NCBI GenBank assembly: GCA_905178155.1
Contig: CAJINV010000001.1
Location: forward strand, 10,472,311-10,536,310
Length of the DNA stretch: 64,000 nucleotides
Reading direction: 5' to 3'
DNA from: Amoebophrya sp. A120
Lineage: Eukaryota > Protista > Dinoflagellata
The notes under the pieces were generated by a model. It was not told the origin of the DNA and ran no database searches. It was given only the letters and a program-made list of their open reading frames with translations. Positions 1,237 through 63,232 of this stretch are shown here, in pieces. Position numbers and translations under genes: made by a program. Each line of letters begins with the position of its first letter. Position 1 is the stretch's first letter.

Positions 1237-3254
1237 ATGGGCTTCAACATCGGCATAGGGACGCCCATGGGCACTCCGCGGTACGCATCCGCGACTTACC
1301 ATGCCGGGAGTACTCCGATGACCACCCCCCGCGGAGGTGGGGGCGCGGCCATGGTGCAGACGCCGCGGAGCGTTTCCGGCGCCATGACGATGCTGACGCC
1401 CAGGGTAAACGCGGCGGTGACCAGCGGCGCAAGTGTCTTCCAACAAATCGTCCTCCACCCGACGTGCTTGCTGCACCGACTCCCCATTTGCTCGTCCTCC
1501 GGATTCAACGTTTACCCACGGTCAAAATCCTTGCTCCCCGAGAAGGTGAAGGAAGAGAAGAAGCCCAAGGAGAAAAAGAAGAAACTCACTTTGAAATCCC
1601 TCGTGAAACTGACGATGATGTTCCGGCCCGAGATCCGGCTCTACTTCCGCATGAACGGCTACGACGCCGGCCCGCTCTTCCAGGGCCGGGTGTCCGCGCG
1701 GGAAGGCGAGCTGCGGACCGTGGGCGACATTCTCCGGGTCCTGCGGCAAAAACTGACCCGGAATGTGCAGGCGTACGTCGAGAAATTGAAAGAGTTATTC
1801 CCCTACGAGTCCTCCGCCGGGAGGACCACCATTGGCATGTACTCCGCGAAGGCCGAAGACATCATAGACGAAGACGCGGACATTACCTTCGTCGAGGACG
1901 ACGACACACCACCAAACACCGCCGGCGCGATGAATAACGCGAACAAGCAGGACGACGGGCAGGATAAGGACCACATCACGGTCGACCACATTGGCGGTGT
2001 GTACACCCTATGCAATGCAGAAGTATCGTACTAGTATAAATGGCATTACAAATTGGCGTAGCATTACAAATTGAATTTGTAATGCGGATTTGCCTTAACA
2101 AGAAGATTTGTAATGCATAAATGCCATTTTAGTACGATACTTTTGCAGTGCATACACACCGACGATCAAACTCTTCTACATGGTATCAAAGGCAAAAATG
2201 TCTGGGACTGGGTCTGGAAGAGCCAAACTTGTGATGCTGCATTTGGATGCTGAAAAAACCGGTATTGCATGTTCAAATTTGGCTACGCGGAGAGGGCATT
2301 TGTCATGCAGGACGCGCATCGATAGGCTTAGGCGCTCAAAAAATCTGTGATGCTATTGCATACATCAGAGACATCATGGATCATGGAAAATGTGCATGAC
2401 AAACTTCTCCTCTTCCAGACCCAGACGTTTTTACATTTGATACATGGTGTCGCCCAACGACATTGCGCACTTCGATTTGTACGCGTTCATCCCCCAGCGC
2501 GGTATCAAATGCAAAAATGTCTGGGTCTGGAAGGGTTGGAACTTGTGATGCAAACTCTGGAACACACAAAAATTTGCGTTGCATGAGCGCCAAAAGCTGT
2601 CCATTTCTTGGCACGCAAGTAGGAAGTTTCTCATGCGGGACAGGCATCAGGAGGCGTGCTCAAAACCTGTGATGCCATTGCCTGCATCAGACGCCACTTG
2701 CGTGATCCGAAATATGCATGACAAATCTCAGAATCTTCCAGACCCAGACATTTTTGCATTTGATACGCGGCAGACCGGTGCAAAAACTCCTCCTCCAGCA
2801 GCTCACCTACTACCCCTGGAACAAGCAGATCAAGCGGTTCGGGTGCGACATGCTCCCGCACCCGCCGGGGAGCCGGAAGATCCTGTTCGAAACACCCAAG
2901 CCGCAGAAGAAAAACATCGTGGTCAAGTTCCATGTGGAATCCGATTGGCAGGAACTGCAGCAGTTGATGCGGTTCCTGTTTGACGACAAGGTGAAAAAGC
3001 ACCAGCAGGAGCTGAAAGAAACACAGAAAACGTTCGCGGAGACGTATTTCAAAACCAAGTTGGAGCGAGAAGCGGGTGTGACGAAGGAGCTGATGCTGTT
3101 GTCGGAAAAGCTGTTGGAGAAAAATTGCGGCAACGTGCAATTGGGGTTCGGGGATTCCGTGAAAACGGACATGAACGAAAACATGCGGAAAATGTTCGAT
3201 TTGTACATCAAATCCAAGCAGGAAATGCTCTGGGACGTCAGTTTGAAGGCGTGA
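1237..3254 (+). CDS. Hypothetical protein interrupted by three introner elements
   Basis: ORF 1237-2008 joins micro-exons at about 2160-2183 and 2448-2502 and a final exon to TGA at 3254 when 151, 264 and 268 nt are removed. The joined protein reads ...GGVYTPTIKLFYMVSPNDIAHFDLYAFIPQRGRPVQKLLLQQ... Start codon uncertain; no family recognised. Confidence 0.75.
2009..2154. mobile_element. Introner A (TIR non-canonical intron)
   Basis: Left TATGCAATGCAGAAGTATCGTACTA matches the reverse complement of the right end, TATGCACTGCAAAAGTATCGTACTA (23/25). Flanks CACCC/CACAC. Removing 151 nt restores the frame. Confidence 0.85.
2184..2442. mobile_element. Introner B (main TIR family)
   Basis: TATCAAAGGCAAAAATGTCTGGG...CCCAGACGTTTTTACATTTGATA. 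TSD CATGG at 2179-2183 and 2443-2447. Removing 264 nt keeps the frame. Confidence 0.92.
2503..2765. mobile_element. Introner C (main TIR family)
   Basis: Perfect 31-bp TIR TATCAAATGCAAAAATGTCTGGGTCTGGAAG at 2503-2533 and 2735-2765. TSD CGCGG. Removing 268 nt restores the frame. Confidence 0.95.
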
Positions 3255-8000: not shown

Positions 8001-11000
8001 TTAGTCACCGCCTGACCAGCCCGGAAACCATACCGATCGCTTCCTTGCTTGCGGTCGGAATTCTGAACCAGTTTCTGGTAGAGCGGAAATTGCGCAGTGA
8101 GGTAAGTTGTATCTATCAGCACGACTGCATTTTCATTTTTCTTCCGCTTGCATTCTCTTTCTCTGAGTCACACAAAAATCACCACAACATACATCAACAA
8201 ACAGGTCGCTATCGTCGTGGAGGGAGGCGACTGCTTTGAAATCCATCACTTCGCCCTACTCCTCGGTTACGGCGCAGACGCCGTCTTTCCCTACATGGCT
8301 TACCTCGCGCTGCAGCGCTGCCGGCGACCGAAGTACACCCAGGACTTCAGTCTGGCGACCAAGATTGAAAATTACCGCCGCGCCGTGCATCAAGGCCTGC
8401 TGAAGGTGATGAGCAAGTGCGGCATCTCGTGCCTCCAGAGCTACAAGGGAGCGCAGTTGTTCCAGGCGATCGGGATCAGTAACAAAGTGGTAAACAAGTG
8501 TTTCACCGGTACGGACGTCGCCCTCCAGGGGGTCGGGTTTGACATCTTCCACTTGGATGCGGTCCGACTGCACACCATCGCGTTTCAGCAGATGCGGTTG
8601 CCCCCCCTGGTGGACGAAGAGTCCCGGGAGCTGCCAGACTGGGGCGAGTACCACTTCTATCGCACGAAAAAAGTGTTACAGTTACACATTTGTTGTCAAT
8701 TTAGCAACACAAATTTCTCGGCATGAGAGAGAAAACTTGCAATGCAGAAATCCTACGGGAAAACACCTATGAAAGGAGGCCCCTATCATGCATATCCGGC
8801 ATGACAGAGCTTGTCTGTCTTGCTTGGCCTGCAACACAGTGTGTAACTGTAACACTTTTTTCTCAGGATAACTTCCGCTCCGTCGGGGAGCAGAACGAGT
8901 TCCACATGAACTCCCCGTATCAAATGTAAAAATGTCTGGGTCTGGAAGAGTGCATGTTTGTCATGCTTGTCTGGCATGACTCTCAAATCTGTCATGCGCG
9001 TTACCCAAGAGCTCCATTTTTCTGCGATGCAGAAACGCAGTTTGTCATGCAGAATAGGCAACACCTAGAAGCTCAGAAACTTGTCATGCTGAGCCAGCAT
9101 TTGTGGCCTCATCATGAGACGACACCCAGCATCACAAGTTTCCAGACCCAGACACTTTTGCATTTGATACCCCGGACGTGATCGCGAAACTCCAGCAGGC
9201 GGCGAAGACGAACAGCACGAAAGCCTTCCGCACTTACGAGGAGTACCAGGACAAGATTTCGGAGCAGGGCGAGGTCCGCGGGCAACTGGAATTCGCGTAT
9301 CACGAAGACGGACCCTTGGACTTGGCCGAAATCGAGCCGGCGAGCGAAATCGTGAAGCGGTTCGTCACGGGCGCGGTCAGTTTGGGCAGCATTTCCGAAG
9401 AAGCGCACAAGGCGCTCGCGCTGTCCATGAACCGGGCCGGGTCCAGATCCAACACCGGGGAGGGTGGTGAGGAGTCGGAACGGTTCACCGCTTTGAAACA
9501 CTCCGGCTTGATCAAGGCCGGCGCCGTGGACTGGGAGGTGGAGAAAAACGACAGTTTCCGGTCGAAGATCAAACAGGTCGCCAGCGGGCGGTTTGGCGTT
9601 ACGACGCAGTATTTAGTGAACGCAGACGAGCTGCAGATCAAGCTCTCCCAGGGCGCGAAGCCGGGCGAAGGAGGGGAACTACCCGGGTACAAAGTGATCG
9701 GGAAAATCGCAGAGGTGCGGCAGAGCACCCCGGGAGTGGGACTAATATCGCCCCCGCCGCACCACGACATGTACTCGATCGAGGATGTCGCCCAGCTGAT
9801 CTCGGATTTGAAGCACGTGAACCCGGAGGCGCGAATTTCGGTGAAACTCGTTTCCCGCGTTGGCGTCGGAATCATCGCCAGTGGCATTGTGAAGGGGAAA
9901 GCGCAACACGTCACGATTTCGGGCGGAAATGGAGGTACCGGTGCCGCGAAGTGGACCTCAATTAAGCGCACGGGGTTGCCGTGGGAAATCGGGCTTGCGG
10001 AGACCCATCAGACTCTGAATCTGAATGGCATTCGGCAAAATGTGTGTTTGCAAACCGACGGGCAGATCAGAACGGCCCGGGACATCCTCGTTGCGTTCCT
10101 GCTCGGCGCCGACGAGGTTGCAATGACCACCGCACCGCTGATCACTTTGGGGTGCATCATGATGCGGAAGTGCCATTTGAACACCTGTCCAGTCGGCGTT
10201 GCGACGCAAGATCCGGAGCTACGTGCGAAATTTGACGGGCATCCAGAACACCTGATTAACTACTTGTTTCTTCTCGCGAACGAGGTGCGCCGCTACATGG
10301 CGCAGTTGCGGGTAACCTCGGTCAAAGAGCTGATCGGGCGTGCGGATTTGCTGCGACCGAGGCCGGCCACGTTTCAGAACCGGAAAACCGCGCAGTTGGA
10401 TTTCGAAGCGCTGCTCACTCCGGCTTGGACCATGAACAGCTTGGTCATGCAAGACCAGGCACCGCAACTACACCAGGAGACGATCGACCGCCGAGGCAGT
10501 CCGGCCGCGGCGGTCCGGCGCGGGACGCGTCGTGCTCCTGGGAACTACATTTGCTGCGGTGGGTCCGCGACGGCGGACGCGTTGGATCACTTCTTGGTGT
10601 CAAACTGCAAACCCCTGAAGGAATTCCAGCCGGCGCAGTCGTTCGGCCAGACACGTACTAGATGTGACTCAAATTTTGTCTCGTGCTGTTCATCTTTTGA
10701 GAGCTGTGTATTGTAATGGTAATATGCGACGCGTAGCGATTATATCAGTTCACATGATCAAGCAAGAGGGTTGCACACTCCGACACCAGGCTGGCTGCCC
10801 GGTGTCGACCAGCTTCGGCTGGGTCTCTGTCCTTTGTCCAGAAATACCGCATTGTCTTGGCTCGCCTAGATTTTGCGTTTTTTCGTCTCTTCGGTTCTCG
10901 GAGAGTGGATATTTGACGGAGGAGTGTCTCGATGAGAAAGCGAGGCGCACTTGTGCGCCTCAGGCCTTCGCTCTGGTTCTGCTTCGCAGTTCCGCCTTGT

Positions 11001-14000
11001 CGTTTCCGGCGCTGCCGATCCTTAGCGTGGATCAATGCAGTGCGCGGCAAGCAAAGAGCTCCGGTGGTCCCGTTGCCATTGAGCTGCCCAAGCCATGGGC
11101 AGGTCAGAACAGACGGCGTGCGCCTTGCCGTGTGCACGTAGCTCGGCCCTACCGAGTGCCAGGGCATTATCCTGACAGGGGATGATGTCCCGGTGGGAAG
11201 GAAGTTGTTGCGCAGCTCTCAGAGTGCGGAGAGAGAGTTCGCGTTCTTCGACTACCCTCCAGGCTATCTCCGTTCAGTGGTACACACACGTCGATGACGC
11301 GCTCTCGGTTCTCGCGAGCACCACTGGCCGGGGAGTGGAGAACCCGACTGCCCACGATGTGGGTGTAGCAGAGGTTCTTCACGCCGTTAGGGGCACAGGC
11401 CCGGCGTTATCTTGGCCTATTGGCCAGGCCCGCTATCGGCAAGACACATCGGAAAACAGCGCAGCTTCGTCTGCGGCCTGCCGCTCTGTGTGTCGCGGGC
11501 GCTTCGCGATTCTGCTTGTCGATGCACGCCGCGATGCGGCAGACATGCAGTAGCAAGGCGCTCGTCTGTCGTAAATGGATTCGCGCGAGCGGGGGCGCCG
11601 CGGTCCATTACGATGGGAAGGCCTCACTGAAGGCTGTGAAATAGCCACTGGTATCCTACTAGGGCGATGCCCGCAAGGTCCCTGTCACAGGGGTCCGGGG
11701 CCAGTGTAGCGGCAACCTACCGCAGCCGGCAAAAGATCGCGCCGACGGTCATAAGCCGGGGCTAAGTACAGACAGACACACAGGAACACGAGGCAAAAAA
11801 CAAGGCACCCCCGCGCCATGTATTTAGCCCCTGCCAATGGCAGGGGCCGCCCGATGGGCCGCATCACATACACACTACGATCTGACTACAAATAGAGTCA
11901 CCGAAACGAAACGCAATGGTCTGCGTGCCCGATGGGCACGCAGATATATTAAGTACCAGGGCCAGCCCTCACACCACACCGCCCAGCACCCTGGACGCGC
12001 AACCCCACAGCCCCGCAGGCGCGGCGGTTTGTAGCAGTGGGTCGCATGCCTGGGGCGCAGGTTATTGCTGGTGTGTGCCTTCGCCTGCGCGTGTGACTTC
12101 GATGACGTCGCCTGCGGGTGCTGGGGTGGGGTTGGGCGTCCGCGACGTCGTTGTTGCTGCTCTTCGGAGCTCGTGACGCCTTCGTTGCAGCTTCCACATG
12201 GATGCTTGCTTACATCTTGCAGGGCATGTTGTAGGTAGCACTTCGTGTGGAAGTATCAGGTGTGCTGACACGGAAGGAGAGCTGAGGAGCGTGGCCTATC
12301 GGCTTCGCGACTCCGTCCTTCGCTCCTCGGCGTCGGTCCGCCGGTGTTGATTGCTTGAATGCAGTCGACGCAGTCGAGGGGTTCAGCGGTTGGTGTGGGG
12401 GCGAGAGGGAGCGCTGCATAGATGCTCTTTTGCTTCTGTGAACAGGTTCGTTCTTCTCCTGCTTCGGGGTCTCCCAGGAGATCCTGACTCATCCAACGGG
12501 CCTGGGGACGCTTTTGTGGCCTTTGCGAAATTTAAACGAAACACAGCTACGACAGATAGCGTCTACTTACCGAGACGCGTGGTCGGTCGCGCAGTGCTTT
12601 GTGCTGCTTCCGCCACGAGAGGAGACCGCGGAACCCTCCCGGGCCTTACTTATTTAGTCACATTTGGGAGCACGCCCCCACTATCCTCACCCGGTTCCCG
12701 GGTTGTGTCGCGGGGATATGTCCCGGCACGATTCCACAAGCCTCGCTACTTTGCTACGCCGCCCCGTGCGCCCTGCTCTCTGTCCCCGACAGTGCGGGCT
12801 GCCCCCTTTGTTTAGTCGCATTTGGGGAAGATATTCGGCGGTCCCAGTCGCGCCTCGCGGCTTGGGCCACCTCTATGTCCGGGGCATGGCTCTGTGGGGG
12901 TCGAGAGCCTGGCTTGCATGGCCTGCTACCCGTAGCTCGTTGTGCCGGCCGGGTTCTCTCTTGGCTGCCATTGTGACTGTCGCTCGAGGTCTTGCGACTA
13001 TCACTGCGACGCGCTTCTGCACGTCATTCGCTTCCGTTGGTTGCGCGCGCGTTCACTCTATGGGTGAATTGCGCAGAGAAGGTGAAATTATATATAATGT
13101 TGCCTTCTGCTTCTTTGCGCTAGTAGAGCAAACCTTGACTGAAAACAACCTTGCAAACTAAAAAACTCAGATATCCACCAAGCCGAGCGTCGTATCCGTC
13201 CGCTGACGATCAGTCTCGTTCGCATCACCAATGAGCACCGCACCGTCGGTGCCATGCTGTCTTACATGGTGTGTCGATTTCAGGAGACTTTCAACGAGAA
13301 CAAGGCACTCGCTGCCGATACCATTCGGGTCCAGTTCCAGGGCCACGCTGGGCAATCGTTCGCAGCCTTCCTCATCACCGGAATTACCTTCGAACTTGAG
13401 GGCGACGCAAACGACGGCTGCGCCAAGGGACTCAGCGGCGGTCGCGTGATAGTCTACCCGCCGCAGATGTGCAGCTTGGTGCCGCACGAGAATATCTTGA
13501 TCGGAAACGCCGCACTGTACGGCGCGACCGGCGGTCAGGCCTTCTTTTCCGGTGTCGCATCCGAGCGGTTCTGCATCCGTAATTCCGGCGCCGTCGCGGT
13601 CGTTGAGGGCGTCGGCGATCACGGGTGCGAATACATGACGCGCGGGCTGGTGCTGATCCTCGGGAAAACCGGAACGAACTTCGCCGCCGGGATGAGCGGT
13701 GGGATTGCTTTTGTGCTGGATTTGAATCCCCAGAACGTGAATTCCCAGACCGTCTTCGTGGAAAGCATCACGGAAGAGGACCAGCACACGATCAGAAACT
13801 TACTGGAAGAGCACACGGAACTCACCAACTCGCAGATCGGAGCGGAGCTGCTAGCGCTACCGCCCAAGCAGCTTGCCCCTCGGTTCTCCCGCATTTTTCC
13901 GAAGGAGTACAAGAAGGTGCTGAAAGAAGCGATCGTCGAACACACGAAGGTCGGGTCGAAGCTCGCGGCGAAGATCCTCGATGAATTCGACAAGATGCGC

Positions 14001-17000
14001 AACCCGCTGCCGCATAAAAGGACAGACTTGTTTTCCTCCGCGTACCTGCAACACCTCAAGCCCTCCACCGCCTACGGCCAGGCAGGAATCCGCCGCAGCG
14101 TCGCGGGTAGCATTGGCCTCCCGATCGGCGGTCCGCTTCGGGAGGTCGGTGGCGTCGGAGTGGTAAAGTCCTCACTGAGCGCACTGGGGCTTGGAACCGT
14201 CACGGAAAACCGCGCAGTCATTTCCGGGGAGTACGACAGTCTGGTCTCCGCCGACGATCCTGCTGCGCGCTTCCGACTGGGGTATTCCCTCTGGCGCAAA
14301 AGCCCGGCGCCGGGCGGGAAGGACAGCAAACCCGGCGGGGGGAAAGTGCACTTACCGAAAGAGGAACGGGAGAACCTGCTCAACGGCCCGAAGTGGCGCC
14401 GGATTGAAAGGAAGCTGCGCGGCGAGGAAACCCCGTCGACGGCTGCCAGCTGTGACTCTAATGACGGAAGTCAGAATGAGAACGAACCAATAAAGGACGA
14501 CATGAATGACTCCCTCCAGCTGGACAACATCACGTTGCTGCCGCAGGGCTCCAACTCGGTCCCAGGCATCGCGGACTCGTCTGCCGGCGGAGGTACTAGA
14601 AGAGCCAGCACGTCCTCCGTGAATCTCGCGCTGGTTGCGAAGAGCAGTAGTGCGGCTGGGATCAACAAAGTGGACAAACTAGACCACCACCGGGATAGCA
14701 CCGACAGTTTGGAATTTCTGCAGAAGAAAGAAAAACCCACGAAAAAGAAGTATTTGCAAATCATTTCGGATGTCGAGGATATCATGCGCGGCTCGCATCT
14801 ACGAGCGGTAGCGGTTTCCGTTCCGACAAAGCGCAAGGGGTTCCACCTCTACGGACGGAAGACCGCCGGGTACCGCGATCCCAAAGACCGGCTCCTCGAC
14901 AGCGAGGAGATCTACGCTGGTGGGAAAGTGACCGCGTCGACGAGAGCACGGAACCTTGTCCGGACGCAGGCGTCGCGCTGCATGAACTGCGGAACACCCA
15001 CGTGCCAGTTCCCGAACCAGGGGGGCGGCGGGTGCCCGCTGGCCAATCGGATCCCGGTGTGGAACAGTTTGGTTCACGAGGAGGATTGGAAACGGGCGCT
15101 GGAGCGGTTGCTCGATACAAACAACTTCCCGGAATTCACGGGGACAACCTGCCCCGCCCCGTGCGAGGAGGCGTGCGTGCTTGGAATCAACGAAGGCCCG
15201 GTGACGATCAAATCGATCGAGAACGCGATTATCGAGAAGGGCTTCCAGATGGGGTGGGTCAGCCCCAAGCCCCCGGTGTTCCGGACCAAGAAGAAAGTCG
15301 TGGTCGTTGGCAGCGGGCCGTGCGGGTTGGCCGCGGCGCAGCAACTGAACCGAGCGGGTCACCAGGTCACGGTGCTGGAGCGAGAGGACCAGTTCGGCGG
15401 GTTGCTGTTCTACGGCATTCCAAACATGAAGTTGGAGAAGAGGAAGGTGGTCAGGCGAATCGACTTGATGCGCCAAGAGGGGATTACCTTCCACGCGAAC
15501 GTCGAGGTGGGCACGACTGTCAACTACGATTTGCAGACACTCTGTTCGGAGTACGACGCGGTGCTGTTCTCCACCGGCGCGAACGCGGCACGGAAGCTGG
15601 AGCGGTCTTTGCCCGGGAATGATTTGGGCAACATTGTCCAGGCCATGGATTTCTTGACGGACTCACAGAGGTATGAAAGCCAGCTGGCAGGCGTCAACAC
15701 GGATCCGCATAGTTTACCCGCTGCGGTTCTTTCCATCAGCACGAATTCATCCGCTACAGGAGCGAACAGACCGGGCAAACAGCAAGCTTCCGGTCCGTCA
15801 AAGAAATTCGATTGCGCAGACAAGGACATCATCGTGATTGGCGGTGGCGACACAGCGGTGGACGTGATTGGCACGGCGATAAGACAGGGCGCAAAATCGA
15901 TCACGCAATTTTCCCGGCGGCCGAAAGCCAGCGAAGACCGACCGGTTCACACCCCCTGGCCAAGCTGGGCCGATGTGTATCGGACCGATTATGCGCATGA
16001 GGAGTACATCGCGGCCACAGGGTCGGATCCGAGGACGTACGCGATCAAAACTCGAGAGTTCGTCCCGGACAGAACCGGAAAAGTAGTGAAGAAGGTCGTC
16101 GCGTTGCAGGATGTGCTGGACGCCGACGGGAACAAAACTGGAGAGGAGCGGTTGGTGGAGTACGATGCGGACTACGTCTTTCTCGCGATGGGCTTCGTTG
16201 GCAGTGAGAAGATCAAGTGCCCGGCCCAATCTGCGGTTTCGCAGTTGCGACCGAATCAACTATTCGAGCAGGAAGAAAGTTTGAATAGTTCCGCAAGTTC
16301 ACTTCCTGCGGTTTCGACCCCGCAGACGCGGTCAGCCAACGGGCACCAGATTTCAACTTCCGGTGTTACGACGCTGGCACAACTAAGCACCAACAATCCC
16401 AATCGCAAGGAGGAGCCGGTGGAGACCGAGCAGCAAGACCACTACTACCTCGGTTCCAACGTTTTTTTCGCGGGCGATTGCCGCCGCGGCGCGAGTTTGG
16501 TCGTCACCGCCATCGCGGAAGGGCGCGACGTGGCCAACCGGATCGATGAGTACTTGCTCGCGAAGGATTGTTTAAGGGGAGACTATTCCGGCCTGAAGTA
16601 CGGGGACGCGGCTCTGTTCAATCGCGGGCTGTCTGCCTTACCCCGGTGCATTCCGCTCGCGCAGAACCCGGCGCTTTACACGAGGTCCGACGTGTTAGAG
16701 TCGAACGAGCAGATCTACCGGAAAAAGAAAAAGATGAAGAAGCCCCAGATCTCGGACGGGTTCGAGCGCGGTTTTCTGCTGCAGGACGATCCTGCAAACG
16801 GCCTCGACAAGGAAGGGAACGAGAGTAAGCAGACCACTCCGCAAGGCTCGCCGCGGGCATTGGCGATCACCGACCGCGCTCGCTCCGCGGAGTCTGCAAG
16901 TTCCTTGACGGCAGTGTTGCCGCCGCTTGTCGAGCAGACCACGTCTCAAGCTGACGACAGTACCAGTCTACTCTCCTCCAAAGTGCGACCGGTGAAGGCA

Positions 17001-17357
17001 GTACAGATTCAGTTGAACCCGGTCGTATCCCCTACGACTCTCGCTGAGAAAGAAGAAGTGAACGAAGATCTCGAAAAGTCCAGGCCAAAGAAGAGAAAAA
17101 GACACAAGAAGAAGCACAATGACCGGAATAAAGACCCTGACGCTTCAGATTCAGACTCGTCGTCTTCGTCCGATTCTGAGGAAGAAAAAGGGCGGCATAA
17201 AGGACGAAAGCGCAACAAGCATCGGGATGCAGATCGTCGTGCAGACGAACAGAAAATACAGAACATGCTGATGGTTGGCATCGGTATTTCCGTCGTATCT
17301 AACATTGCTTTGGCGGGGCTATTGGCGTTCGTGTCTCTGAGGAGTACACGACGTTGA
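5050..17357 (+). CDS. GLT1: Glutamate synthase (NADH), fused large and small subunit, multi-exon
   Basis: GATase motifs ACGVG, HRGA, HSRFSTN, HNGEIN and MEPWDGPA; FMN-domain motifs [31 protein letters not shown] and [19 protein letters not shown]; GXGXG domain; small-subunit motifs [25 protein letters not shown] and IGGGDT. GT-AG introns at 6008-6131, 6883-7017, 8102-8204 and 10655-13170, plus introners D and E. Start codon uncertain. Confidence 0.95.
8658..8870. mobile_element. Introner D (distinct TIR family)
   Basis: Left TATCGCACGAAAAAAGTGTTACAGTTACACA; right reverse complement TATCCTGAGAAAAAAGTGTTACAGTTACACA. TSD ACTTC. Removing 218 nt gives [19 protein letters not shown]. Confidence 0.92.
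8918..9169. mobile_element. Introner E (main TIR family)
   Basis: TATCAAATGTAAAAATGTCTGGGTCTGGAA...TTCCAGACCCAGACACTTTTGCATTTGATA. TSD CCCCG. Removing 257 nt gives [16 protein letters not shown]. Confidence 0.95.
10655..13170 (+). other. 2.5-kb GT-AG intron of glutamate synthase with a GC-rich, probably mobile-element-derived insert
   Basis: Phase-1 donor C|GTACTA at 10655 and acceptor AAAAAACTCAG|AT at 13170 join FGQT-H-IHQAERR...[10 protein letters not shown]. It is more than 10 times longer than the other introns here. Confidence 0.75.
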
Positions 17358-26719: not shown

Positions 26720-29030
26720 AAGGAATCTACGTGGCGGATGGTGTACGATGAAATTGGTAAAAGAAAAATAAACTTCAGATGCCATAAGGAAGAAAAAGTA
26801 CTCGTACACACATGTTGATCTTCCTGAACCTGAGCCCCCACCCCGTTTTTGACTTACAAGAGCGTGAACGTCACTTATAATCGAACGGAAGCCCCCCGGC
26901 GCTCATAGAGCTTGTCGTGATCCTAAAAGTAAGAACTAACATACGCCGTTTTTTCATCACGCCAAAGATCACAGTCATGACCCCTTGTTCATTTCCAGCA
27001 CGACGTCATGATTACCTAAAAGAGCATCTAGATCGCTTTTTTGTGAAGTTGTAATAGTCACTGTCACACTACGATAGCATTGATTCATCTATTTTTCGAC
27101 CAAAAAGATGTAGTACTGATTTTTTCTTCTTCAAGCTTCAAACGCCTTTACTTTTACGATATGTCATTCACTGTGTTATATACGATATTGGTTGGTTGTA
27201 CTCTGCGAAAATAGACAGCACCCGAAATAGATATGTTTTCTGGTGTCAATCTCAAGCTCTTGCGCCAGAGAGTCATAGTTACATGGTCGGGGCTTGTTGA
27301 CCTCTCGATTTCTTTTTTTTTACAAGTCGATGTTACAATTTTCCCATGCGAGACCACAAGAAGTTACTTTGCACGCACGATTTTTTTGTCCGGCTAGTCC
27401 GACTATGGCTAGGGATTTCTTGTCAGGCTACGCATGCAGCCGTGAGCATTGGTATCACAAAAACGAGCGGGCCGTGTGCGTTTCCGCCTTTTTTTACACC
27501 AGGAGACGGACAGACTTTATTTTTAGAACAACTTGTACCGTATTGGTCAATAGTATTAGCCACTTTTTGTGCAACGGTTTCGCCGTGGTAACGTTAACGG
27601 ATAGAAAGGCAGACTACCTCGAGGAACTTTTGATAATGAACTCAAGCGAGCATACTGACACATTACCGAAGTTGTAATTGGAGTCTCTCGCTCAACGTCG
27701 ACCTGCATTGAATCCCAAGCGAGCGACGTTGGTTTGGATTCAAAATCTTCCTAGAAGACGCAGACGCAGGCACTTTCTCAGCCACTGACAAGGGCAAGCT
27801 TCATCAATCTCCAAAAGTATGAAGGAACTAAAGAGTCAAATCTTGTTCAACTTTTCTTTGTGTTCAAGCCATTCTAGGGAGAGTCGGGCGAGACATCTAC
27901 CGAGCAGCGTGACAGCATCTTCACGCAGATACGCAGGCGGGCAGGTTCGTTTCAGCTGTGACGCGCGGCCCATCAAGTCCCGGAGAACGTAGCGGCGCGG
28001 GTGTTGGCCATTGTGTTTTCCGCATCTGGCGGGTGCGGGAACCGGATAAATTTCGCGCGCCCACGCGCCCCGCGCGGGTAGCGCTTCGGGCGCATCTCGC
28101 CCGCGCCCGCCCGCCTTCCTGCTTGCCAAGGGGGGCGTCTTTTGTTTCTGTGCCGGGGCAGTTGGCCCCGGCCGATGAGCATCCTGGCGCAACACGAAGG
28201 CACGCCGGAGCCGCCGGCGCCACGCTTCCAGACAGGCTCGCTGCATTCCCCATCCGGATCAGAAACGCGGCGGCGGCTGGCCATGTTGAAGGACCCCGCG
28301 CCGCCCCGTCGCGCTATCTATATCTTCTAGCTGTGGCCTCTGTGCCGCGCGGCTGCCTGGCCCGCCCCCGCGGCCCGGCGCTAGCAACCGGGCCGGGGGG
28401 CGGCGGGGGCCCCGGTGCCCCTACGCGGCGCCCACGGTATTTCCCCCGGCCGGGCCCTTTGGGCCGCCGGTCCGCCGCGGCGGGCGAGGCCCCGAGCGGA
28501 GGGGCCGCCCCCCCGGGCTATTGTAGCCGCAGCGGGAGCGGGGGGGCGGGGGGCGCGGAGCCGTCCCCTTGGCCGCCCCCGCGCTGCGCGCGCCGCCGGC
28601 CGGGGGCGTAGGTACGAACGGGGGGCCAGGGGGGCGGGCGGTATTTGTTCCGGCCGAGGGCCCTCCTTCGCATGTCAATGTCTCCGAGGAACGGCATCGG
28701 GGCGAGCGGGCGAAGGGATGAAAGCGCGGGCGCGCGCCGCGAGTTTGGCGCGGGCCCGCGCCACGCACGCAAGGCAATCGGGCAGGGTCGCCGGGCCCAT
28801 GATGGCGCCCGCCGGTCGGCGCTAGCTTCGCCGGGTGGCCCGCCCCCCTTATCTCTTGCCCGCCGGCCACCGGGGATGGGAGGGTCCCGGGATCTGGCTC
28901 GCCGGCATGGCGGAAGTTACAACCATAACGGGGGGTCTACTCATCGGCTTCAGAACTTTTTGAAAACTTTTCGAAAACTTTTGAAAACAGAGAAAAGCGA
29001 TGACGCGAAACCACCAAGGTCCGACGCCCT

Positions 29031-29880
29031 TTTTTGGCGGCGTGCCGTCGTGTTTCGTGGTCATATATGCTGACCGATAAAAGGCGCGCGCGCTGCCGTC
29101 GGTCACACGTGAGCCACGGGCGGAATACTCTCCGCAGACTTGTAATCTCTTGCGCGCTTGAACAGCGTCGCGCGCCGCCCAAACAGGGCCGCGTCCTTGA
29201 TATATGTAGTCACGCATGACAAGGCTTTGATCCACCCCTTCGCGTTTCGCCTAGGGACAAACGCACTCGGTTGGCCGTGCTGTTTATTTGACCGCGGGAC
29301 AAACGCACTTGGGTGGCCACCCCCCCACCCGGGGCCAGCCCTCCTCCTTTTCGCCTGGCAGGGTCTAGGGTTTAGGGCTTGGCCCTCCTCCTTTTCGCAG
29401 GGCTTGGGTTTTGGTTTAGGGTTTGGGGCTTAGGGCCTAGGGCCTCGGTTCTCAGGCGCAGCGCGCCGGCCTTGAGAGGCGTGTCTGGAGAGGTCCAGGG
29501 GGTGCGCCCCTGCGCCGCGTTGCGTACGTTTGTAAACTCCACAAGAAAAAGCGGCGCAGCCGAAGAAGCAAGCTCTGACTTCTGTTACCTTTTTGGCGCC
29601 TGTGCTGACCCCAGGCACGGCGGCACGCCGCCAGAAAGGAGCGAGAATGCTGAGTCTTCAAAAAGTACAAAAGAAGCGCTACCCAGACACGAAGCAGGGT
29701 GGCACTGCCTGCGAAATAGGCAAAGCTCACGGCTCAGGTTTTGTAGTCTTTTTGGCGCCGTGCCGTCGCGTTTCGTGGTCATATACGCTGACCGATAAAA
29801 GGCGCGCGCGCTGCCGTCGGTCACACGTGAATCGCGGGCGGAATCCCCTCAGCAGATTTTTAATTTATTACGCGTTTGAA
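29031..29880 (+). repeat. Direct repeat pair inside the TIR element (about 29031-29160 and 29749-29880)
   Basis: Both copies contain GCTGACCGATAAAAGGCGCGCGCGCTGCCGTCGGTCACACGTGA, offset 718 bp. Confidence 0.9.
29360..29442 (+). repeat. Degenerate TTTAGGG telomere-like repeats
   Basis: AGGGTCTAGGGTTTAGGG...GGTTTAGGGTTTGGGGCTTAGGGCCTAGGG. Confidence 0.65.
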
Positions 29881-29902
29881 CGGCGTGCCGTCCTGTTTCG
29901 TG

Positions 29903-31210
29903 ATAGGTTTGGACCCCGGAGCCGGGGCGAAAAGTTGTATACTTTACATGCGACGAATAACGTGGGCGGTAACGTTATCCACGGCGGCACCGCGTAGGCA
30001 AAAAAGCGCGCTTTTTCAACTTTTGCTCGAATTCTGAGGCAAAACACGACCTGAGCGCCCATTTTGAAAAGTTTTTTTTTTGCACTTTTGGGCTATATGT
30101 GAAAAACCAAAACCGATGGCATGATGCCGCTTTTCTGGTCCTCGAAAAAACGAATCCCGAGCTAATTCCCGAAAAAAAAAACTTTTAAAAAACTTTTTAA
30201 AAACTTTCTTTTGGGGCACCAAAATCGTGCCGGTTTCAAGCAGAATCCGCCGCGGGGAGCTTCAAGAAGGGAGGCCAGAAAAAAAGTTTTTTCGGGGTTT
30301 TTTCGGGCTCGTTTCGGGCTCACCGAAATAGCACAGCAAAAAAGTCGCACTTTTTGGCCTCCGCCGTACCACCGTGCCAAAGTCAGCATTGCTCCAGCGC
30401 CGATGGTATGCTGGTGGTGTTTTTTTGTTATGTTTTGCCAATGCCGGCGCTTTTGCGTCTGAGTCAAGCTTTTGGGTTTTTTGGTAGTGCAAATAGCTTG
30501 GGCGATGACGGAAAAGCTAGAAGTTGAGTTTAGTGCTAGACTCTGGAAGAGCTGGAGTCGGAGTATGATACTGGATCACGGGGCATCGCTACACTTATTT
30601 CTCGGCTTGATTTCGTGATCATAGGTTTGGACCCGGAGCCGGGGTGGGCAACTGTATACTTTTTTACATGCGAAGAATACCGCTGGCGGTAGCATTATCT
30701 ATGCACGGCGGCGCGGCGTAGGGTAAAACGCGCGAGCTCTCGACTTTTGCTCAAATTCTGAGGCAAGGCGCGACCTTTGCGCCCATTTCAAAAAGTTTGC
30801 TTTGCGCTTTTTCGCTATATCTGGAAAATCAGAAGAAACCGACAGCATGGCGCCACTTTCCTGACCTTCAAAAAAAAACTCCCGAGCTGATTCTGGAAAA
30901 AAAAACTGCTGGAAAACTTTCCAAAAGCTTGCACATGGGGCACCAAAACGGTGCCGGATTCAAGCAGAAGCAGCAGCGGGGAGCTTCGGGAAGGGCGGCC
31001 AGATAAAAAGTTTTTTCGGGTTCGTTTCGGGCTCACCGAGGTAGCACTGTAAGAGCTTGCATTTTTTGGCCTCCACCATACCGCCGTGCCAAAATCAGCA
31101 CTGTTCCGGCGCCGCTGTTAATTATGTTGGTGGTGTTTTTTGTTATGTTTCGCCAATGCCGGCACTTTTGCGATGGAGGGGGTTCGCTGAGTCAAGCTGT
31201 TGGGGTTTTT
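29903..31210 (+). repeat. Diverged direct duplication of about 580 bp (about 29903-30482 and 30621-31210)
   Basis: Collinear anchors ATAGGTTTGGACCC, GGGGCACCAAAA, CGTTTCGGGCTCACCGA and CTGAGTCAAGCT, at offsets of roughly 720-730 bp. Confidence 0.88.
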
Positions 31211-42438: not shown

Positions 42439-45400
42439 ATGGCTGAGCCACCTGCAGACCCCATGATGGAAGAGGAGAGCCCAGCACCAGCAGTGGATAA
42501 ACATGAATCCGCGCCTGATGTGGTAGCAAATGCAAAAGGGGACGACCACGACGTAGTGGTGACGCCGAATCCTGCTGCCGTTTTGCGGTCACATTTGCTG
42601 GCCAATGGCGCAGAGAAACTCACGGAGTACGTCTGCGAGACCTTTCCGGAACCGAGTTCCTGCTGGTGGCTGTCTTGCATTGTCGGGACGCGGACGTTTG
42701 AAGAATCGATACTGGAGGACGAGACGACTGTGCTGTCCCTGGACGCGCTCGGGGTTAGCGACGACACCATTCTTACGGAGCAGGAGAAGGAGTCGAAGCT
42801 TCTGCAAAAAATCCGATACCTGCTGCTTAAGGACTCGGTGTCCACGACGGTAAGCGTAAGCGGAACAAGGCATGAAAATTATTTTCGTTTCCGCGCCATG
42901 CATTTTATTTTTCCATTTCAATTTCTACTTTGTGCAAAGAGACAAACATCATGATAAGTACATAGATAAGTACATTCATAAGTACTTATTAACCTACCTG
43001 CAAAGGTCCAGCACGGCTTTCGTGTGAGTGGTCTGGAGGCGCCGCGCGGCAGTTTTCGCGAGAAGTACTGGCCGCTGATGATTCTGAAGAAGTCCCACGC
43101 AGTCGACGCCTTTTTCACTGTTTTTCTCCGCCCCTGCATCCAGCACGACGAGGAAAAGCGGTTGTGTGTCGTGAGAAAAATCGTGGAAAAATTGAACGAC
43201 TTCTACACTGCACTAACCGCATCCGCCGAGGCTTTGAGCACGCTGGAAATTTTGAACTCCAGTGTTGTTATAACAGTGAAGGACCCCTGCAGCAGCCCGT
43301 TTAAAGATGAAAAAGCAACCGTCCTCGAAGCTTCCGCTCCCGAAAACGAGCCGGAGGTGTCGGTGAAATGGGTTTTGCTTCCGCCGCCCGAAGAACAAGT
43401 AGTTCTTTCAACAGCAACTTCACCTCCAGAGGTGGAGGACGGCGGGACCACCACAGCCGCGGAGAAAACTTCTTCCTCCAAAGAGGAAGTGGAACAAAAG
43501 CCAGCAGTTTCCCCACCTCCGCCGTCCTTATGCAAGAAAAAAAGGTTGTTAGTGTAAATTTGTGATGCACAACATGCAAATTGCTTGAGCCTGTCATGCT
43601 TGGCATGCATCTAAGGGTCCATTCAGCGGCGTTTTCCCGTACTATCTGCGCATGACAGGTTTTTGCTGTCATGCGGGAGATATTTGTCATGCTAATCCTC
43701 CAACAAAGTTACACCTACAATCTTTTTTTCCTGGATAGTCCTGTGCGATCGTGAACTATCACCCGGATTTGAAGCTGACGCACAAGCAAATGTGGCGGGA
43801 CGGGAATTCCGAGGACGGATTCGTCTTCGGTGTGCGCACGATCCGGGAGTGCTGGTCGTCCGTGCTGACCAAGCTCGATACGAAGTGGAAAGAGAAGCAA
43901 AGACGGTTAGAATTGAGAAGCAAAGCGGAGCAAAAGGCAGAAGCTGTCGCTGCAAGAAGTGCAGGTGGAGCTGCCACTGGAGTAGAACAAGAAGTATCAG
44001 CACAGGCTGGAGAGAACGAGGATGAAAAAATTGTCAAAGACGAAGAAAAGGACCTGGACTTCCTAGAGGCGGAAGGGGCTGTTATAGCGTCAAATTTGAG
44101 TTCTCCAGTGGAGCAAGCAGACGAGTTCTACGGCGACGAAGCTGCCGGGGACGTATTTGTCTCCGGAAACAACTTATTGGAGGAGAAAATGCGGGTCTAT
44201 GAGACCGATGTGTACTTCACAACGGCGACTGCGGCAGCGGTGTCCCCAAGCGGGTTGGAAGCAGCTTCCCCCGCAACGTCAGATGAAGATGCGAAAGAAG
44301 TAGGTTCGGCGACGAAACAGGATGGCGACGCTGGGAATAAAGCAGAGGCACTTGCAAGTAAGTTGTTTGTGGAAGTAGATCTTCCAGCTTCGGACGACAA
44401 AAAGGTCATGAAACTAGTGTCAGTTGGGAACTCTGACGAAGTGTTTACGTCGCAAGAGCCTGCAGCTTCGGGTGTGGTCGATGCTGTTGGTGAAACATCA
44501 GGTGCATTTTTGTTTTTCTAGTCAGTACCGAAGAAGCTTGCGCCATATTGTTTTTCTAGTCATTTGGTGTATAAACTCGTTTGAATCTTCCGCAGCTGCA
44601 TGCGTCACAGTTTGTTGCAGCTCACATTTAAAAATTTTACCAGCACAAAGCCTGAGTTTCTAAAATCACATCATCCTGCTCACCTCTTTTCAGCCCCTAC
44701 TGGTGAGAGGAAAGACTCGTCCCCGGAGCGCCGCGCTAGTTTGACTGCGGAATACCTGCGACAGACCTTCGAAGACCCGATTGGCCGCCCGATTTCCGAG
44801 TTGGCGTCCGAGTGGAGTTTCACGGAGTCCCGGGTAGCCATGCACAGCAGCCGGCCGAAGGACCGGGAAAGCATGCGGGCGTATTTGTTGCGCGTGAACA
44901 TGGAAAAACTGATGTTCTCCTCCGCGTCCGCCTACGCGCAAAGCCACCGCGACCCCCTAGACGACTTCGAAGAACTGATTTCCGAGGCCACGCCCGCGGC
45001 GGGATTTCGAAACACAGGGAACAATGCCCTCGGCTTGGAGAAAATTGTCGAGGTGGAGGAGGGATCTCCGCTGAGGGAATTACAGCAGGAAAAGGAAGTA
45101 GAGCAAGGAGAAAATCTCCTTGCAGACGACCAGCCGAAGCAAGCTGCTAGTAGCAGCAGCACGGCAGCGAAACTGGCCAACATGGTGAGCTTGAGCAGCA
45201 ACGAGTCTGTCATTCACACGCTTTCTTCTAAAGAAGACGCCCCGCCGCCGGTGAAGCAAACGACCGCTAGATCCTCGAGACGGGTGACACGGAAAGTCGA
45301 TTGGACGAAGCACTTAATGCTCAGTACTTTTATATGTCTGGCTTGTGGTCGTTCTTATTCTTTGTTGACTTCAGAATCTATCAGAACATGTAGTATGTCC

Positions 45401-58300: not shown

Positions 58301-60268
58301 CGGGGTCGCGATTTTCACGGTCCTGTTCGTCTTCATCCTGATTGCCAGCAGCGGCGCGAACCTCGCTACAACCTTCGGCCTCATCGCGGAGGGGAAACGC
58401 GGCGCCGCGGAACTGTTTTTCACGCTGGACCGCAAGCCGATGATCCAGTACACCTACGCGGATCCAGTCAACATGGTCCCGGAGCCGCAGCGGTTTCGCA
58501 AACTCGCGCGAAATCAGAAGAAAATCAAGGACTTCGAGCAGATCCGGTTCCAAAACGTCCACTTTTCCTACCCATCCCGGCCAAAGAACCCGATTCTGCG
58601 CGGTCTGACCCTGGAAATCAATCGCGGCGACACGGTCGCTTTGTGCGGCCCCTCCGGTGGTGGCAAGAGCACGGTGATGCAGTTACTCCTCCGGTTCTAC
58701 GACCCAAACCAATTCGTGTCCGGTTTGTACAGGAAGGACCGAAACGTGCAGAAATACCTCCTCCACGGCTCGTTCGCGGGCAGAGTGGTTTTGAACAAAG
58801 ACGAGCTGGACCTGCGCACCGCCGTGGATTTAAAGTCCTGGCGGTCGATCATCGGATACGTGGGACAGGAACCGGTGTTGTTCGACATGTCGGCCTGGGA
58901 CAACATTGTGTACTCCCTGGAAGCCGAAGAACAGGCCAAAGTGACGGTAGACCAAGTGAAAGAGGTTATCCGAAGTAAAAATGTGCCCACCCCAGAGTTG
59001 TCATGCAGATTTGCGATTACAGGAAGATTTGTAATGCGCATCTCCTTGAGAGGCGTTTCCAATCGTGTTTTGCAATTTGTCATGCTGCAAACAGGATAAG
59101 CGCATGGATTTGTGATGCGGTTGTCGTTTCTAACATGCACTACGCTACGGACTGCAACCTGTCATGCGTGGCTCCCAAAACTTCTGGATTTGTGTTGCTA
59201 AGTTCCCATCTTGACCTTGGTGTGGGGACGTTTTTACATATGAAAGATGTCGCAAAGCAGGCCATGGTGGACTTCCTCGGCGAGGTAGCACCGCCACCGG
59301 CTTCTTATGGATTGTAAAAATGTCTGGGTCTGGAAAATTGCAACTTGTCATGCTGTCTTTGGATCCCAAAAAAATATGTATTGCGTGACCAGCAACAGGG
59401 GTCCAGTTTGTGTTACGCGGAGAGGGCATTTGTCATGCGGAATAGGCATCAGGAAGCCCTCTAAATATCTGTGATGCTAGATCATGCATTACATGAGTCA
59501 TGGATCATCTAAAATATGCATCACAAATCCCGGAATCTTCCAGACCCAGACATTTTTACATTTGATACTTCTAGCGCAGTTACAACTTCTCCCACCCCGT
59601 CCGGCGGGTTGCCGGGGTTCGAAAGCGCCGCTACTGGAGCGAGTAGCCCTTCCTCCCTCGGAGAAGTGAAGACGGCGGGGACAGCGGTCTCTGTTGACAG
59701 TGGAGCAGCAACTACAGCTACACCGCGGAAAAGTGCGGCGCAGGTGGGGTTCTACCCTTCTGGGGACATTATGATGGACAACATAACGTCTGAGGGCAGC
59801 AAGCAAACACCTACGTCTCCGGCGACCGGCGCAACCACCCCGTTCATGCCCTCCTCGTACAGTCAGCAGCCGCAAAGTGCGGAGGGCAAGAAGCCAGCCG
59901 AGATCGGGTGGCACACGCTACTCGGCACCCGGGCGTCGCTTCTCTCGGGTGGGCAGCGGCAGAGATTGTCCATCGCACGGGCGTTGTTGCGGAAGCCGCA
60001 GATTCTCCTGTTAGACGAAGCTACGGCGGCACTGGACAACAACTCGCAGAGGGAGGTACAGGCGGCACTGGACGCTTTGCTGCAAACGATGGGAAAACGC
60101 ATGACGGTAATCACGATTGCCCATCGGCTCTCGACAATTCGCAACTACAGCAAAATTTTAGTGATCAAGCAGGGAGCACTGGTTGAGCAGGGGAATCATG
60201 ACATGCTACTGCAACAGAACGGAATCTACGCCGGCTTGTACTACGCGTCGGTGGGAGACGAGCACTGA
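52311..60268 (+). CDS. ABCB (MDR/P-glycoprotein-like) full transporter, TMD-NBD-TMD-NBD
   Basis: Walker A GGSGSGKST and GPSGGGKST; signatures LSGGQKQR and LSGGQRQR; Walker B ILDEAT and LLDEAT; AHRLST twice; two hydrophobic TMDs. GT-AG introns at 55698-55832 and 57662-57835, plus introners G and H. Confidence 0.93.
58967..59245. mobile_element. Introner G (diverged TIRs)
   Basis: Left TATCCGAAGTAAAAATGTGCCCACCCCA; right reverse complement TTTCATATGTAAAAACGTCCCCACACCA (21/28). Flanks GAGGT/GATGT. Removing 284 nt gives DQVK(E/D)VAKQAMVDFL. Confidence 0.82.
59306..59567. mobile_element. Introner H (main TIR family)
   Basis: TATGGATTGTAAAAATGTCTGGGTCTGGAA...TTCCAGACCCAGACATTTTTACATTTGATA. TSD CTTCT. 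Removing 267 nt keeps the frame. Confidence 0.93.
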
Positions 60269-61158: not shown

Positions 61159-63232
61159 ATGGAGCGCAGCAACATGAGGAATCAGACGGTGGCTGTCGCC
61201 GGGCGACAGTTCAACCCGCTGGAACAGGATGAGTCGGTGCTCCGCAAGGGCGAGCGTTCCAACACTTTGCCGACCAGTTTCCGTCGTGGTGATTTGGAAA
61301 TCAAGGAAGCCGACTTGAAGGACCTCGAGCAGCGCCAGGCAGCGTTGAAGGGTAATAACTCCGATTTAGCCTCATGTCAGTGCATCTTGTCTTGCGTGAC
61401 ACTTCTCCTTCTTCTTCATCACATTCCGCGTCGAAAATGATTTGTGCTACGCTCGTCGCGCTCAAATTCAAGAGTGCATATGCATCGAAAATCAAAAACT
61501 AAATCAGGTCGTCAGCGACGTGGGTCTATCAACTTGACGAAGGTCGATGAGAAGGACATGGCACACTACTGGGAAGAATGCAAGGACATTGACCTGCACT
61601 TGCACGGCAAGCTCTCAGCAATCCAATCTGACAACGTCCCTGGCGCTGAGCGGGAGGCTGTGTTGTACAAGCTGAAGGTAGAAATCGAGCTTCTTGTTTC
61701 AGATTCCTTTAGCCACCGTGACCGTTCCTAATGCTGAAATATGCAAATGTTCTTCACCTTCATCATCCAACAGGAGCCGAAGCTGCTGCAGGAGAAGTAC
61801 AAGTTTATCTACTCCTGCGTGAAGGGTGCCAAGGGCTACAACGACACAACCCCGAACCAAGACAACTTCTCCTACACCGTCTTCCAGGGCTGGGACATCA
61901 TCATCATCATGGACGGTCACGGTCCCTGCGGGCACCGCGTCTCCGCGCGCTGCGTGCAGACCATCGCCTTCTACCTGTGCACGAACTTGAAGTGGGGAAA
62001 AGGTATTGCAGCAAGCTTTTCATCTATGACTAAATCCACATCATCAGCAGATTATCCTGCTGTTTTGTACGTGTACTGCAAATCTTCAAAATTAATGCGA
62101 GTGCGACGCAAACAAGCGCCCCCGACACCGACACACAACATAACACAAAAATGCTCTTCCGAAACTCCACAGACATGAAGGGCGCTATGAAGGACGCGTT
62201 CGCCAAGGCTTCCGAAGACGTGCTCGCGTACGCCATTGAAAACGATATTGACGTGCAAGCCTCCGGATCCACCTGCGTCATGTACATGCACAACGGCGAG
62301 CAGTACTACACGGCGAACGTCGGGGATTCCCGGGCGGTGATTGGATACGAGGGGGAGAAGGAAGTCGTCTTCGAAACCGCGGACCACAAGCCGAACTCGC
62401 CGGAAGAAAAGAAACGCATCGAAGCGAATGGCGGTGAGATCAGAACGCTGCGCTACGACGACTTCACGGTGGACCGTATCTTCGTCAAGGGCTGCGACTT
62501 ATCAACTGCAAAAATGTCTGGGTCTGGAAGCGTCGGGGCTTGTCATGCACATTTTGCATGACCCGTGAGGTCTGTGATGCTGGTGCAAGCATCACAGATT
62601 TTTTGAGAGCTTCTTGATGGTGATTACGCATGAGAGCTGCCCTCCCCGCGTGCCAAGAACTGACTCCTCTTGCTGCTTATGCAACACAGACATTTTTAGA
62701 ATCCGCAGACAGCATTACAAGTTCCACTCTTCCAGACCCAGACATTTTTGCATTCGATACGACTACCCCGGTCTCTGCATGTCCCGGTCCTTCGGGGATG
62801 AGTGCGTCAAGGGCTGCGGTGTCACCTCCGAACCGGAAGTCACCGGACCAACCAAGGTATCTTTAGGGTAGCGGTGATGGTGGTACTTAATACATAGGCT
62901 TTCCGACTCATCATTTGCTCGTGTCGTAATCTTATCATCCCACGATTACGAAAGTTGTCGATTTATTACAATAAAACGTCTACTGTCGAAACAAAAAACA
63001 GCTCGACCTCTCCCGCAATCCGTTCCTGGTGATCGCTTCCGATGGTGTGTGGGAGTTCATCGAGAGCGCTTGGTGCGTGAAGGCGATTGTGAAAAAGCTG
63101 TCCCAGGAGCCGGCCGAGCGAATCATGCAGAAGCTGTCCAAAGAGGCCCGGCGGCGATGGAAACAGGAAGAAGGCGAGTACTGTGACGATATTACGGTCT
63201 GCTTCATGCAGATGAACCGCCATATGAAGTAA
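61159..63232 (+). CDS. Protein phosphatase 2C (PPM family)
   Basis: Motifs PNQDN, MDGHG, SGST, ANVGDSR, DHKP, MSRSFGD, IASDGVWEF and DDIT. GT-AG introns at 61352-61507, 61678-61773, 62003-62172 and 62857-63001, plus introner I. Confidence 0.94.
62500..62759. mobile_element. Introner I (main TIR family)
   Basis: TATCAACTGCAAAAATGTCTGGGTCTGGAAG...CTTCCAGACCCAGACATTTTTGCATTCGATA. TSD CGACT. Removing 265 nt gives RIFVKGCD-YPGLCMSRSFGD. Confidence 0.95.

Follow-up and report, generated by a model that had tools for sequence, protein, structure and literature searches.

Why do introners in this part of the Amoebophrya sp. A120 genome lie beside one another, separated by micro-exons, while exons of several kilobases elsewhere in the same DNA are empty? 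The window analysed here, a stretch of 64,000 nucleotides, was searched with a motif-free scan for a 5-nt direct repeat (TSD) combined with inverted ends (TIR), followed by a profile scan trained on the output. Applied to 559 kb of reversed sequence as a control, the profile made 2 false calls. Together the scans located nine elements (Table 1), to which BLAST with family members added none. In all nine, 14–20 of the first 20 nt are complementary between the two ends; the 5-nt TSD is perfect in seven, with one mismatch in A and in G; and the end motif TAT-N7-AAA is present at 16 of the 18 ends, with G-right and A-left deviating by one base. A TAT start was found in 264 of 283 strict candidates from the window and related loci by the scan that assumed no motif. 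The elements are MITE-like in being short (146–279 nt), with a TIR, a TSD and many copies: their best hits among related loci reach 83–95%, and thousands of contigs from DNA run X6 align to related copies. An Rfam search of the window gave no match.

Published introners of A120 have inverted repeats, short direct repeats, a TAT-N7-AAA end, a length of about 240 nt, repeated occurrence and non-GT-AG removal, as described in the text of Farhat et al. (2021, PMC7789003). The window elements are like these in ends, repeats and removal, and their host protein is an A120 protein. The nine elements are thus known TIR and 5-nt-TSD introners of Amoebophrya A120. The host genes of B-C, H and I all lie on the + strand, but introner I has the opposite orientation to B, C and H. 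The right end of G starts with TTT, and the mismatch between the copies of its TSD falls on a third codon position, giving Glu or Asp.

Table 1. Introners, micro-exons and the A-B-C host gene, in window coordinates.
Feature	Coordinates	Body	Strand	Description
Host gene of A-B-C	1237..3254		+	CDS exons 1237-2008, 2160-2183, 2448-2502, 2771-3254; 444-aa protein
Introner A	2004..2159	2009-2154 (146 nt)	.	150-nt family; TSD 2004-2008 / 2155-2159, one mismatch
Micro-exon 1	2160..2183		+	24 nt; present in RNA contig
Introner B	2179..2447	2184-2442 (259 nt)	.	262-nt family; perfect TSD
Micro-exon 2	2448..2502		+	55 nt, not a multiple of 3; present in RNA contig
Introner C	2498..2770	2503-2765 (263 nt)	.	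Family and orientation as B; 32-nt perfect TIR; perfect TSD
Introner D	8653..8875	8658-8870	.	In glutamate synthase gene; RNA joint 8652-8871
D-E micro-exon	8876..8917		+	42 nt, in frame in glutamate synthase; present in RNA contig; open when joined to neighbours
Introner E	8913..9174	8918-9169	.	RNA joint 8912-9170
Introner F	43524..43742	43529-43737	.	Isolated; predicted from sequence scans
Introner G	58962..59250	58967-59245	.	In ABC transporter gene; right end decayed; TSD 4/5; predicted from sequence
G-H micro-exon (predicted)	59251..59305		+	55 nt; gene model on element-free sequence
Introner H	59301..59572	59306-59567	.	Predicted from sequence scans
Introner I	62495..62764	62500-62759	.	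Isolated; predicted from sequence scans

The initial annotation had given TIR-to-TIR gaps of 29 (A-B), 60 (B-C), 47 (D-E) and 60 nt (G-H), and all four were exact on re-scan; these gaps contain both TSD copies, so that the exons left in the mRNA measure 24, 55, 42 and 55 nt. The scans also confirm that seven of the nine elements have a close neighbour and that A/B, D/E and G/H each join different families, while B and C belong to one family without being each other's closest copies. When nine points were placed at random on the 38,259 nt of predicted CDS, four or more gaps of at most 55 nt arose in 0 of 200,000 trials, and given the per-gene counts the joint chance of the window's gaps is about 3e-6. 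The window stands at the high end: in a related assembly, a neighbour lies within 55 nt for 100 of 340 elements and within 100 nt for 182, leaving 158 elements with no neighbour at that distance. The empty multi-kilobase exons are also there, but are partly due to real differences in load from gene to gene (dispersion 3.4).

Once spliced, the A-B-C gene translates exactly to P0003, which is A120 protein GSA120T00005321001, and an NCBIfam search of the 444-aa product found no match. With the A25 ortholog the alignment runs ungapped through both micro-exons, indicating that micro-exons 1 and 2 are old coding sequence cut by separate insertions; captured or element-derived micro-exons are ruled out by the same colinearity. 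Because every element carries its own 5-nt TSD, neighbours represent separate insertions. D-E lies within a glutamate synthase gene and G-H within an ABC transporter gene; protein searches for other-strain fragments at G-H and at D returned nothing informative, and P0004 stops before the D-E micro-exon. The glutamate synthase gene is interrupted at 10660-13150 by about 2.5 kb of GC-rich, apparently non-coding sequence, in which two ORFs gave no Pfam match. Since the ORF at 13143-17357 bears GXGXG, Fer4_20 and Pyr_redox_2 domains, this glutamate synthase is a fusion of large and small subunits with a CDS of about 9 kb. Elsewhere, window positions 28000-32000 are very GC-rich (72% at 28-29 kb) and then carry repeats spaced about 720 nt apart, with a 31-nt inverted pair at 28951/31522; Rfam has no match to the stretch.

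For spacing statistics on a larger sample, a metagenome pattern scan yielded 144 loci, all from assembly JACKZZ01, a fragmentary set sampled around one family's end, in which no locus overlaps the window's genes. In DNA run X6, which contains 92% of the window's sampled words, contigs match locus L056 of this assembly with 3–22 differences over pieces of 264–591 nt, across two L056 close pairs; the alignment of X6 and X1 to L056 is crowded by repeat copies and few pieces are usable. These matches indicate that JACKZZ01 comes from a close relative, with at least some of its sites in common. The spacing set consisted of 63 merged loci of at least 2 kb (557 kb, 385 elements), while 67 shorter merged loci were used only in family, target-site and orientation counts, and 36 unresolved and 53 edge-cut remnants were left out of the element set. 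A gene model trained on element-free sequence, which recovers the RNA-confirmed introns and the 444-codon gene, places 347 of the 385 elements in predicted CDS (52% of the sequence) and 38 outside it.

The JACKZZ01 elements fall into length classes near 112, 150, 210, 255–265, 280 and 312–322 nt. Hardly any element is nested in another: 96 kb of element sequence contain a single outer candidate, itself doubtful. Elements of the short class (<125 nt), most of them of one motif, cluster less often (2 of 9, p 0.09). The densest gene model, L056:7940-12020, carries 14 introners in 1,137 nt of CDS (12 per kb); its product, judged by eye, presumably resembles a bacterial-type sugar-nucleotide dehydratase.

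In this sample the elements obey a spacing rule that is real and general in the lineage, the mechanism behind it being what we infer below. The initial annotation had predicted a peak near 60 nt and had set uniform random placement beforehand as the outcome that would count against it. A peak was found at 31–70 nt, with its highest bin at 61–70 nt. Before the element set was extended to 385, 60 of 288 gaps in the 63 loci measured at most 60 nt, where uniform placement yields 22.4 and never more than 41 in 2,000 trials. Shuffling within genes gave the same picture, with 96 gaps of 31–80 nt against 39.0 expected (maximum 61 in 3,000 trials), an excess of about 2.5-fold, and a hole below it, with 3 gaps of at most 20 nt against 19.7. 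The excess at 31–80 nt is present inside single exons (93 versus 37.5), including sparse ones (20 versus 5.7), and in genes with fewer than three elements per kb (34 versus 9.6). It also appears with perfect-TSD elements only (57 versus 21.8), without the densest locus (84 versus 32.6) and without elements matching the search pattern (65 versus 28.8), and is weak in the 23 genes that contain exactly two elements (4 versus 2.2). All-pairs density reaches 2.2 times expectation at 41–80 nt, with ratios of 0.71–1.16 and no second peak near the nucleosome distance at 141–300 nt (11–18 pairs per bin); nucleosome-length phasing was rejected on that ground. Of the 23 chains, nine cover over 150 nt of original sequence and the longest reaches 310 nt, more than a single fixed linker could hold. 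The gaps follow no helical period (best p 0.27; p 0.08 at 10.5), the target-site base profile is flat, and the younger-looking partner has no 5'/3' polarity (33 of 72).

Canonical introns separate the two parts of this rule. At 31–80 nt, canonical junctions numbered 43 of 172 against 34.8 expected (ratio 1.2, p 0.06), compared with 93 of 186 against 37.8 for element pairs, although the GC content of canonical introns and elements is equal (0.425 versus 0.428). Plain accessibility arising from base composition is thus not supported; the initial annotation had raised chromatin accessibility as an explanation. The hole, by contrast, also occurs at canonical introns (9 versus 18.5, p 0.005). Because canonical introns have the same hole with little of the peak, we take the hole as a likely lower limit on exon size, and the greater part of the peak as specific to elements.

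Orientation adds a further constraint. Elements occur in both orientations relative to the gene. The 11 close pairs that join members of one family, B-C among them, are without exception direct. Inverted pairs of this kind numbered 0 against 6.7 expected (p 0.0004; within loci 0 against 5.3, p 0.005), whereas direct ones are not in excess (10 versus 6.5, p 0.11). This combination suggests that selection removes arrangements in which a long stem would enclose the micro-exon; alternatively, the missing inverted pairs could reflect assembly, library or short-read loss.

What, then, places a new element at this distance from an old one? A candidate signal lies inside the elements themselves. The motif TGT(A/C/G)(A/T)TGC, which was picked by eye, occurs in 333 of 340 elements at 13.6 per kb against 0.84 per kb (16-fold over background), at about 30–49 and 70–79 nt from each end, and is common to families whose cores cluster separately. 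As tethering would have it, the 100 bp around element-end motifs receive more insertions than expected; elements with more copies of the motif are no likelier to have a close neighbour (rho 0.04, p 0.48). Tentatively, and as something close to an even call, we propose that new introners pile up 31–80 nt from a resident of any family through an end-bound protein that tethers the incoming insertion complex. One mobilising protein would bind the TAT-N7-AAA ends and the subterminal motif of any resident and capture flanking DNA, so that each new element would offer new hot flanks and chains would grow. Selection on splicing would then remove exons shorter than about 20 nt, as the shared hole at canonical introns suggests, together with inverted same-family neighbours, whose long stem would trap the micro-exon. 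The order of insertion in the tethering model is a presumed one, and the age proxies are noisy.

A resident element may instead alter local chromatin, with a nucleosome or DVNP positioned or excluded so that a band 30–80 nt from the ends lies open without any protein tether. We regard this as possible, though rather unlikely. The peak is linker-sized, family-blind and symmetric, introners of many species favour predicted linker DNA in the account given in the text of PMC9860276, and nearest-neighbour gaps within exons are scarce at 151–200 nt (4 versus 15.9). Against these points, no further peak in all-pairs density appears around 200 nt, little attraction is seen at canonical introns that match the elements in GC and are similar in length, and the gap is independent of the length of the neighbour (rho 0.06).

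Selection after a flat pattern of insertion is improbable as the source of the peak. Here, clustered elements would be spliced better through shared recruitment of a non-canonical splicing factor, and so survive. Such a process accounts for canonical introns failing to attract, and the hole and the absence of inverted pairs both bear the mark of selection on splicing; however, the share of elements with a close neighbour runs, from the youngest class to the oldest by noisy age proxies, 32/58, 44/80, 52/90, 31/59 and 23/53. As clustering does not rise with apparent age, survival bias is weakened, and nearly half of the elements, the 158 of 340 noted above, persist with no neighbour within 100 nt.

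Slightly less credible still are fixed hot zones in genes, defined by sequence or chromatin and hit repeatedly whether a resident is there or not. The overdispersed gene load would fit such zones, as would an occupied site that another family has taken. P0001, from a 3.1-kb contig, hardly differs from the host protein as far as C's junction and reads through the positions of A and B, which are absent or spliced there; beyond the junction its sequence is that of a 150-nt-family element, whose first 100 nt it follows from the second base on. In P0001, C's exact site (window 2498-2503) is therefore held by the 150-nt family and not by the 262-nt family. Given the flat target preference, such a same-site coincidence is unlikely by chance (a rough estimate is about 3 sites in 1,332 nt per insertion), and this single case hints at replacement of a resident introner. 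Hot zones are nonetheless hard to reconcile with the lack of a target-site base preference, with chains that extend up to 310 nt in regular steps of 30–90 nt, and with a density that peaks away from zero rather than at zero and has no period.

Finally, local hopping or tandem duplication of a neighbouring copy, which the uniformly direct same-family pairs might recall, is very improbable, as the same family occurs in 14 of 100 close pairs against 25 of 150 distant ones, none of the 100 close pairs is at least 90% identical, direct pairs are not in excess, the TSD differs for each element and the ages of partners are uncorrelated (rho -0.02). Since close neighbours are not copies of each other, local hopping fails, and the initial annotation was right to set tandem duplication aside. 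Its broader proposal, that insertion is directed next to existing elements, holds beyond gene- and exon-level effects, whereas local hopping and plain accessibility from base composition are not supported.

Close neighbours with matching ends also raise the question of how the correct ends are chosen on removal. Introners A to E are each removed singly in the contigs of RNA run X1 and the micro-exons are retained; the contigs also lack three GT-AG introns, and their long exons lack no other letters. DNA contigs contain the elements, which makes excision at the DNA level unlikely. Position 4 distinguishes the two TSD copies of A, and it is the left copy that remains in the RNA, which places the cut at the first T of the TIR or one base before it; the A intron ends in the right TSD and has no GT-AG. 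In run X8, about 90 RNA reads share one unspliced element end (at window 8918-8949) joined to a single non-window flank, with no exon coverage here, and represent one transcript with a retained introner. The exons received no coverage from the raw RNA reads of runs X8–X10.

In the B-C pair, the left TIR of B and the right TIR of C are near-identical, as the initial annotation had noted in suggesting that they could pair and skip the micro-exon. At equilibrium the predicted fold of B-exon-C does cross-pair these two ends, and likewise B-right with C-left; own and cross duplexes sum to equal energies (-95.5 own, -95.8 cross). Even so, among the joints listed (15 of 17) in the RNA contigs of one run, which drop rare forms, none links B-left to C-right (2183-2771). 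Skipping micro-exon 2 would shift the frame and stop the protein at residue 330 or 337. A-B, D-E and G-H are predicted to pair within themselves, and a cross-wise fold is predicted for 20 of 137 close pairs (locus plus strand). B with the exon alone, and C once B is gone, are each predicted to fold end to end.

Equilibrium hairpin strength alone cannot choose the ends. Because the RNA keeps the exon despite a cross-paired equilibrium fold, ends are likely paired during transcription: B would close on itself before C exists, and skipping would stay minor. The suggestion that removal must choose the nearest partner gains indirect support of this kind, from the contrast between the cross-paired fold and the retained micro-exon. 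Matching between TSD copies could add specificity to the choice. Selection for frame-preserving micro-exons was rejected, as micro-exon lengths have no multiple-of-3 bias (remainders 0, 1 and 2 in 35, 29 and 36 of 100) and pairs with matching TIRs have no frame bias (4, 4 and 4). A single putative protein could serve both insertion and removal, tethering insertions 30–80 nt off, swapping the family at an occupied site (as in P0001 at C) and closing elements on the nascent RNA, a notion that we consider doubtful.

Introners of Micromonas and Aureococcus (Huff et al. 2016, as summarised in PMC9860276) are reportedly MITE-like, with TIR and TSD, canonical splice sites and insertion that follows nucleosome linkers. 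As far as the available accounts go, the window elements resemble them in being MITE-like with TIR and TSD, in precise removal and in position-biased insertion, and differ in having non-canonical ends, a bias measured from other elements and no second peak at the nucleosome distance. For A120 itself, the text of Farhat et al. reports that no transposase was found (PMC7789003), while the accessible text of PMC12130899 assigns the introners to TIR transposons and describes ORF-bearing families. No mobilising enzyme came to light in the present analysis, whose element scans reached 450–1500 nt. The nearest parallel to the proposed tethering is Sleeping Beauty, for which PMC4786924 reports an excess of insertions within 100 bp of the binding motif, near sites like the element's own ends; that system is engineered, in human T cells, and concerns chance motifs, whereas the present case is natural, cross-family, inside exons and known from sequence alone. 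Euglenid nonconventional introns, as presented in the text of PMC11282704, are alike in that TIR base-pairing joins non-canonical ends, often with TSD-like repeats, but belong to an unrelated lineage with another end motif, and no spacing rule was seen described in that text.

Within the main and supplement text of PMC7789003 we found no analysis of spacing, clustering, exon size, orientation or skipping. Nor was the spacing rule found in the introner literature surveyed or in the texts of PMC7789003, PMC9860276, PMC12130899 and PMC11282704; Huff et al. 2016, Roy et al. 2023 and supplementary figures or datasets may bear on it. Within this literature, the elements are known and the spacing is a new property of a known element class.

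The spacing rule, consisting of a hole below 20 nt, a peak at 31–80 nt and no inverted same-family neighbours, makes testable both the choice of position and the removal of tens of thousands of non-canonical Amoebophrya introns. It implies that intron gain is not independent across sites, and it provides an empirical minimum exon size for this splicing system, for which pairs of the B-C type are ready-made reporters of mechanism. If, as is likely, residents draw in the next insertions, intron gain would be self-seeding and a source of micro-exons. If one protein did play both roles, self-seeding intron chains would shred exons into pieces of 25–70 nt in an organism that reportedly has no U1 snRNA.
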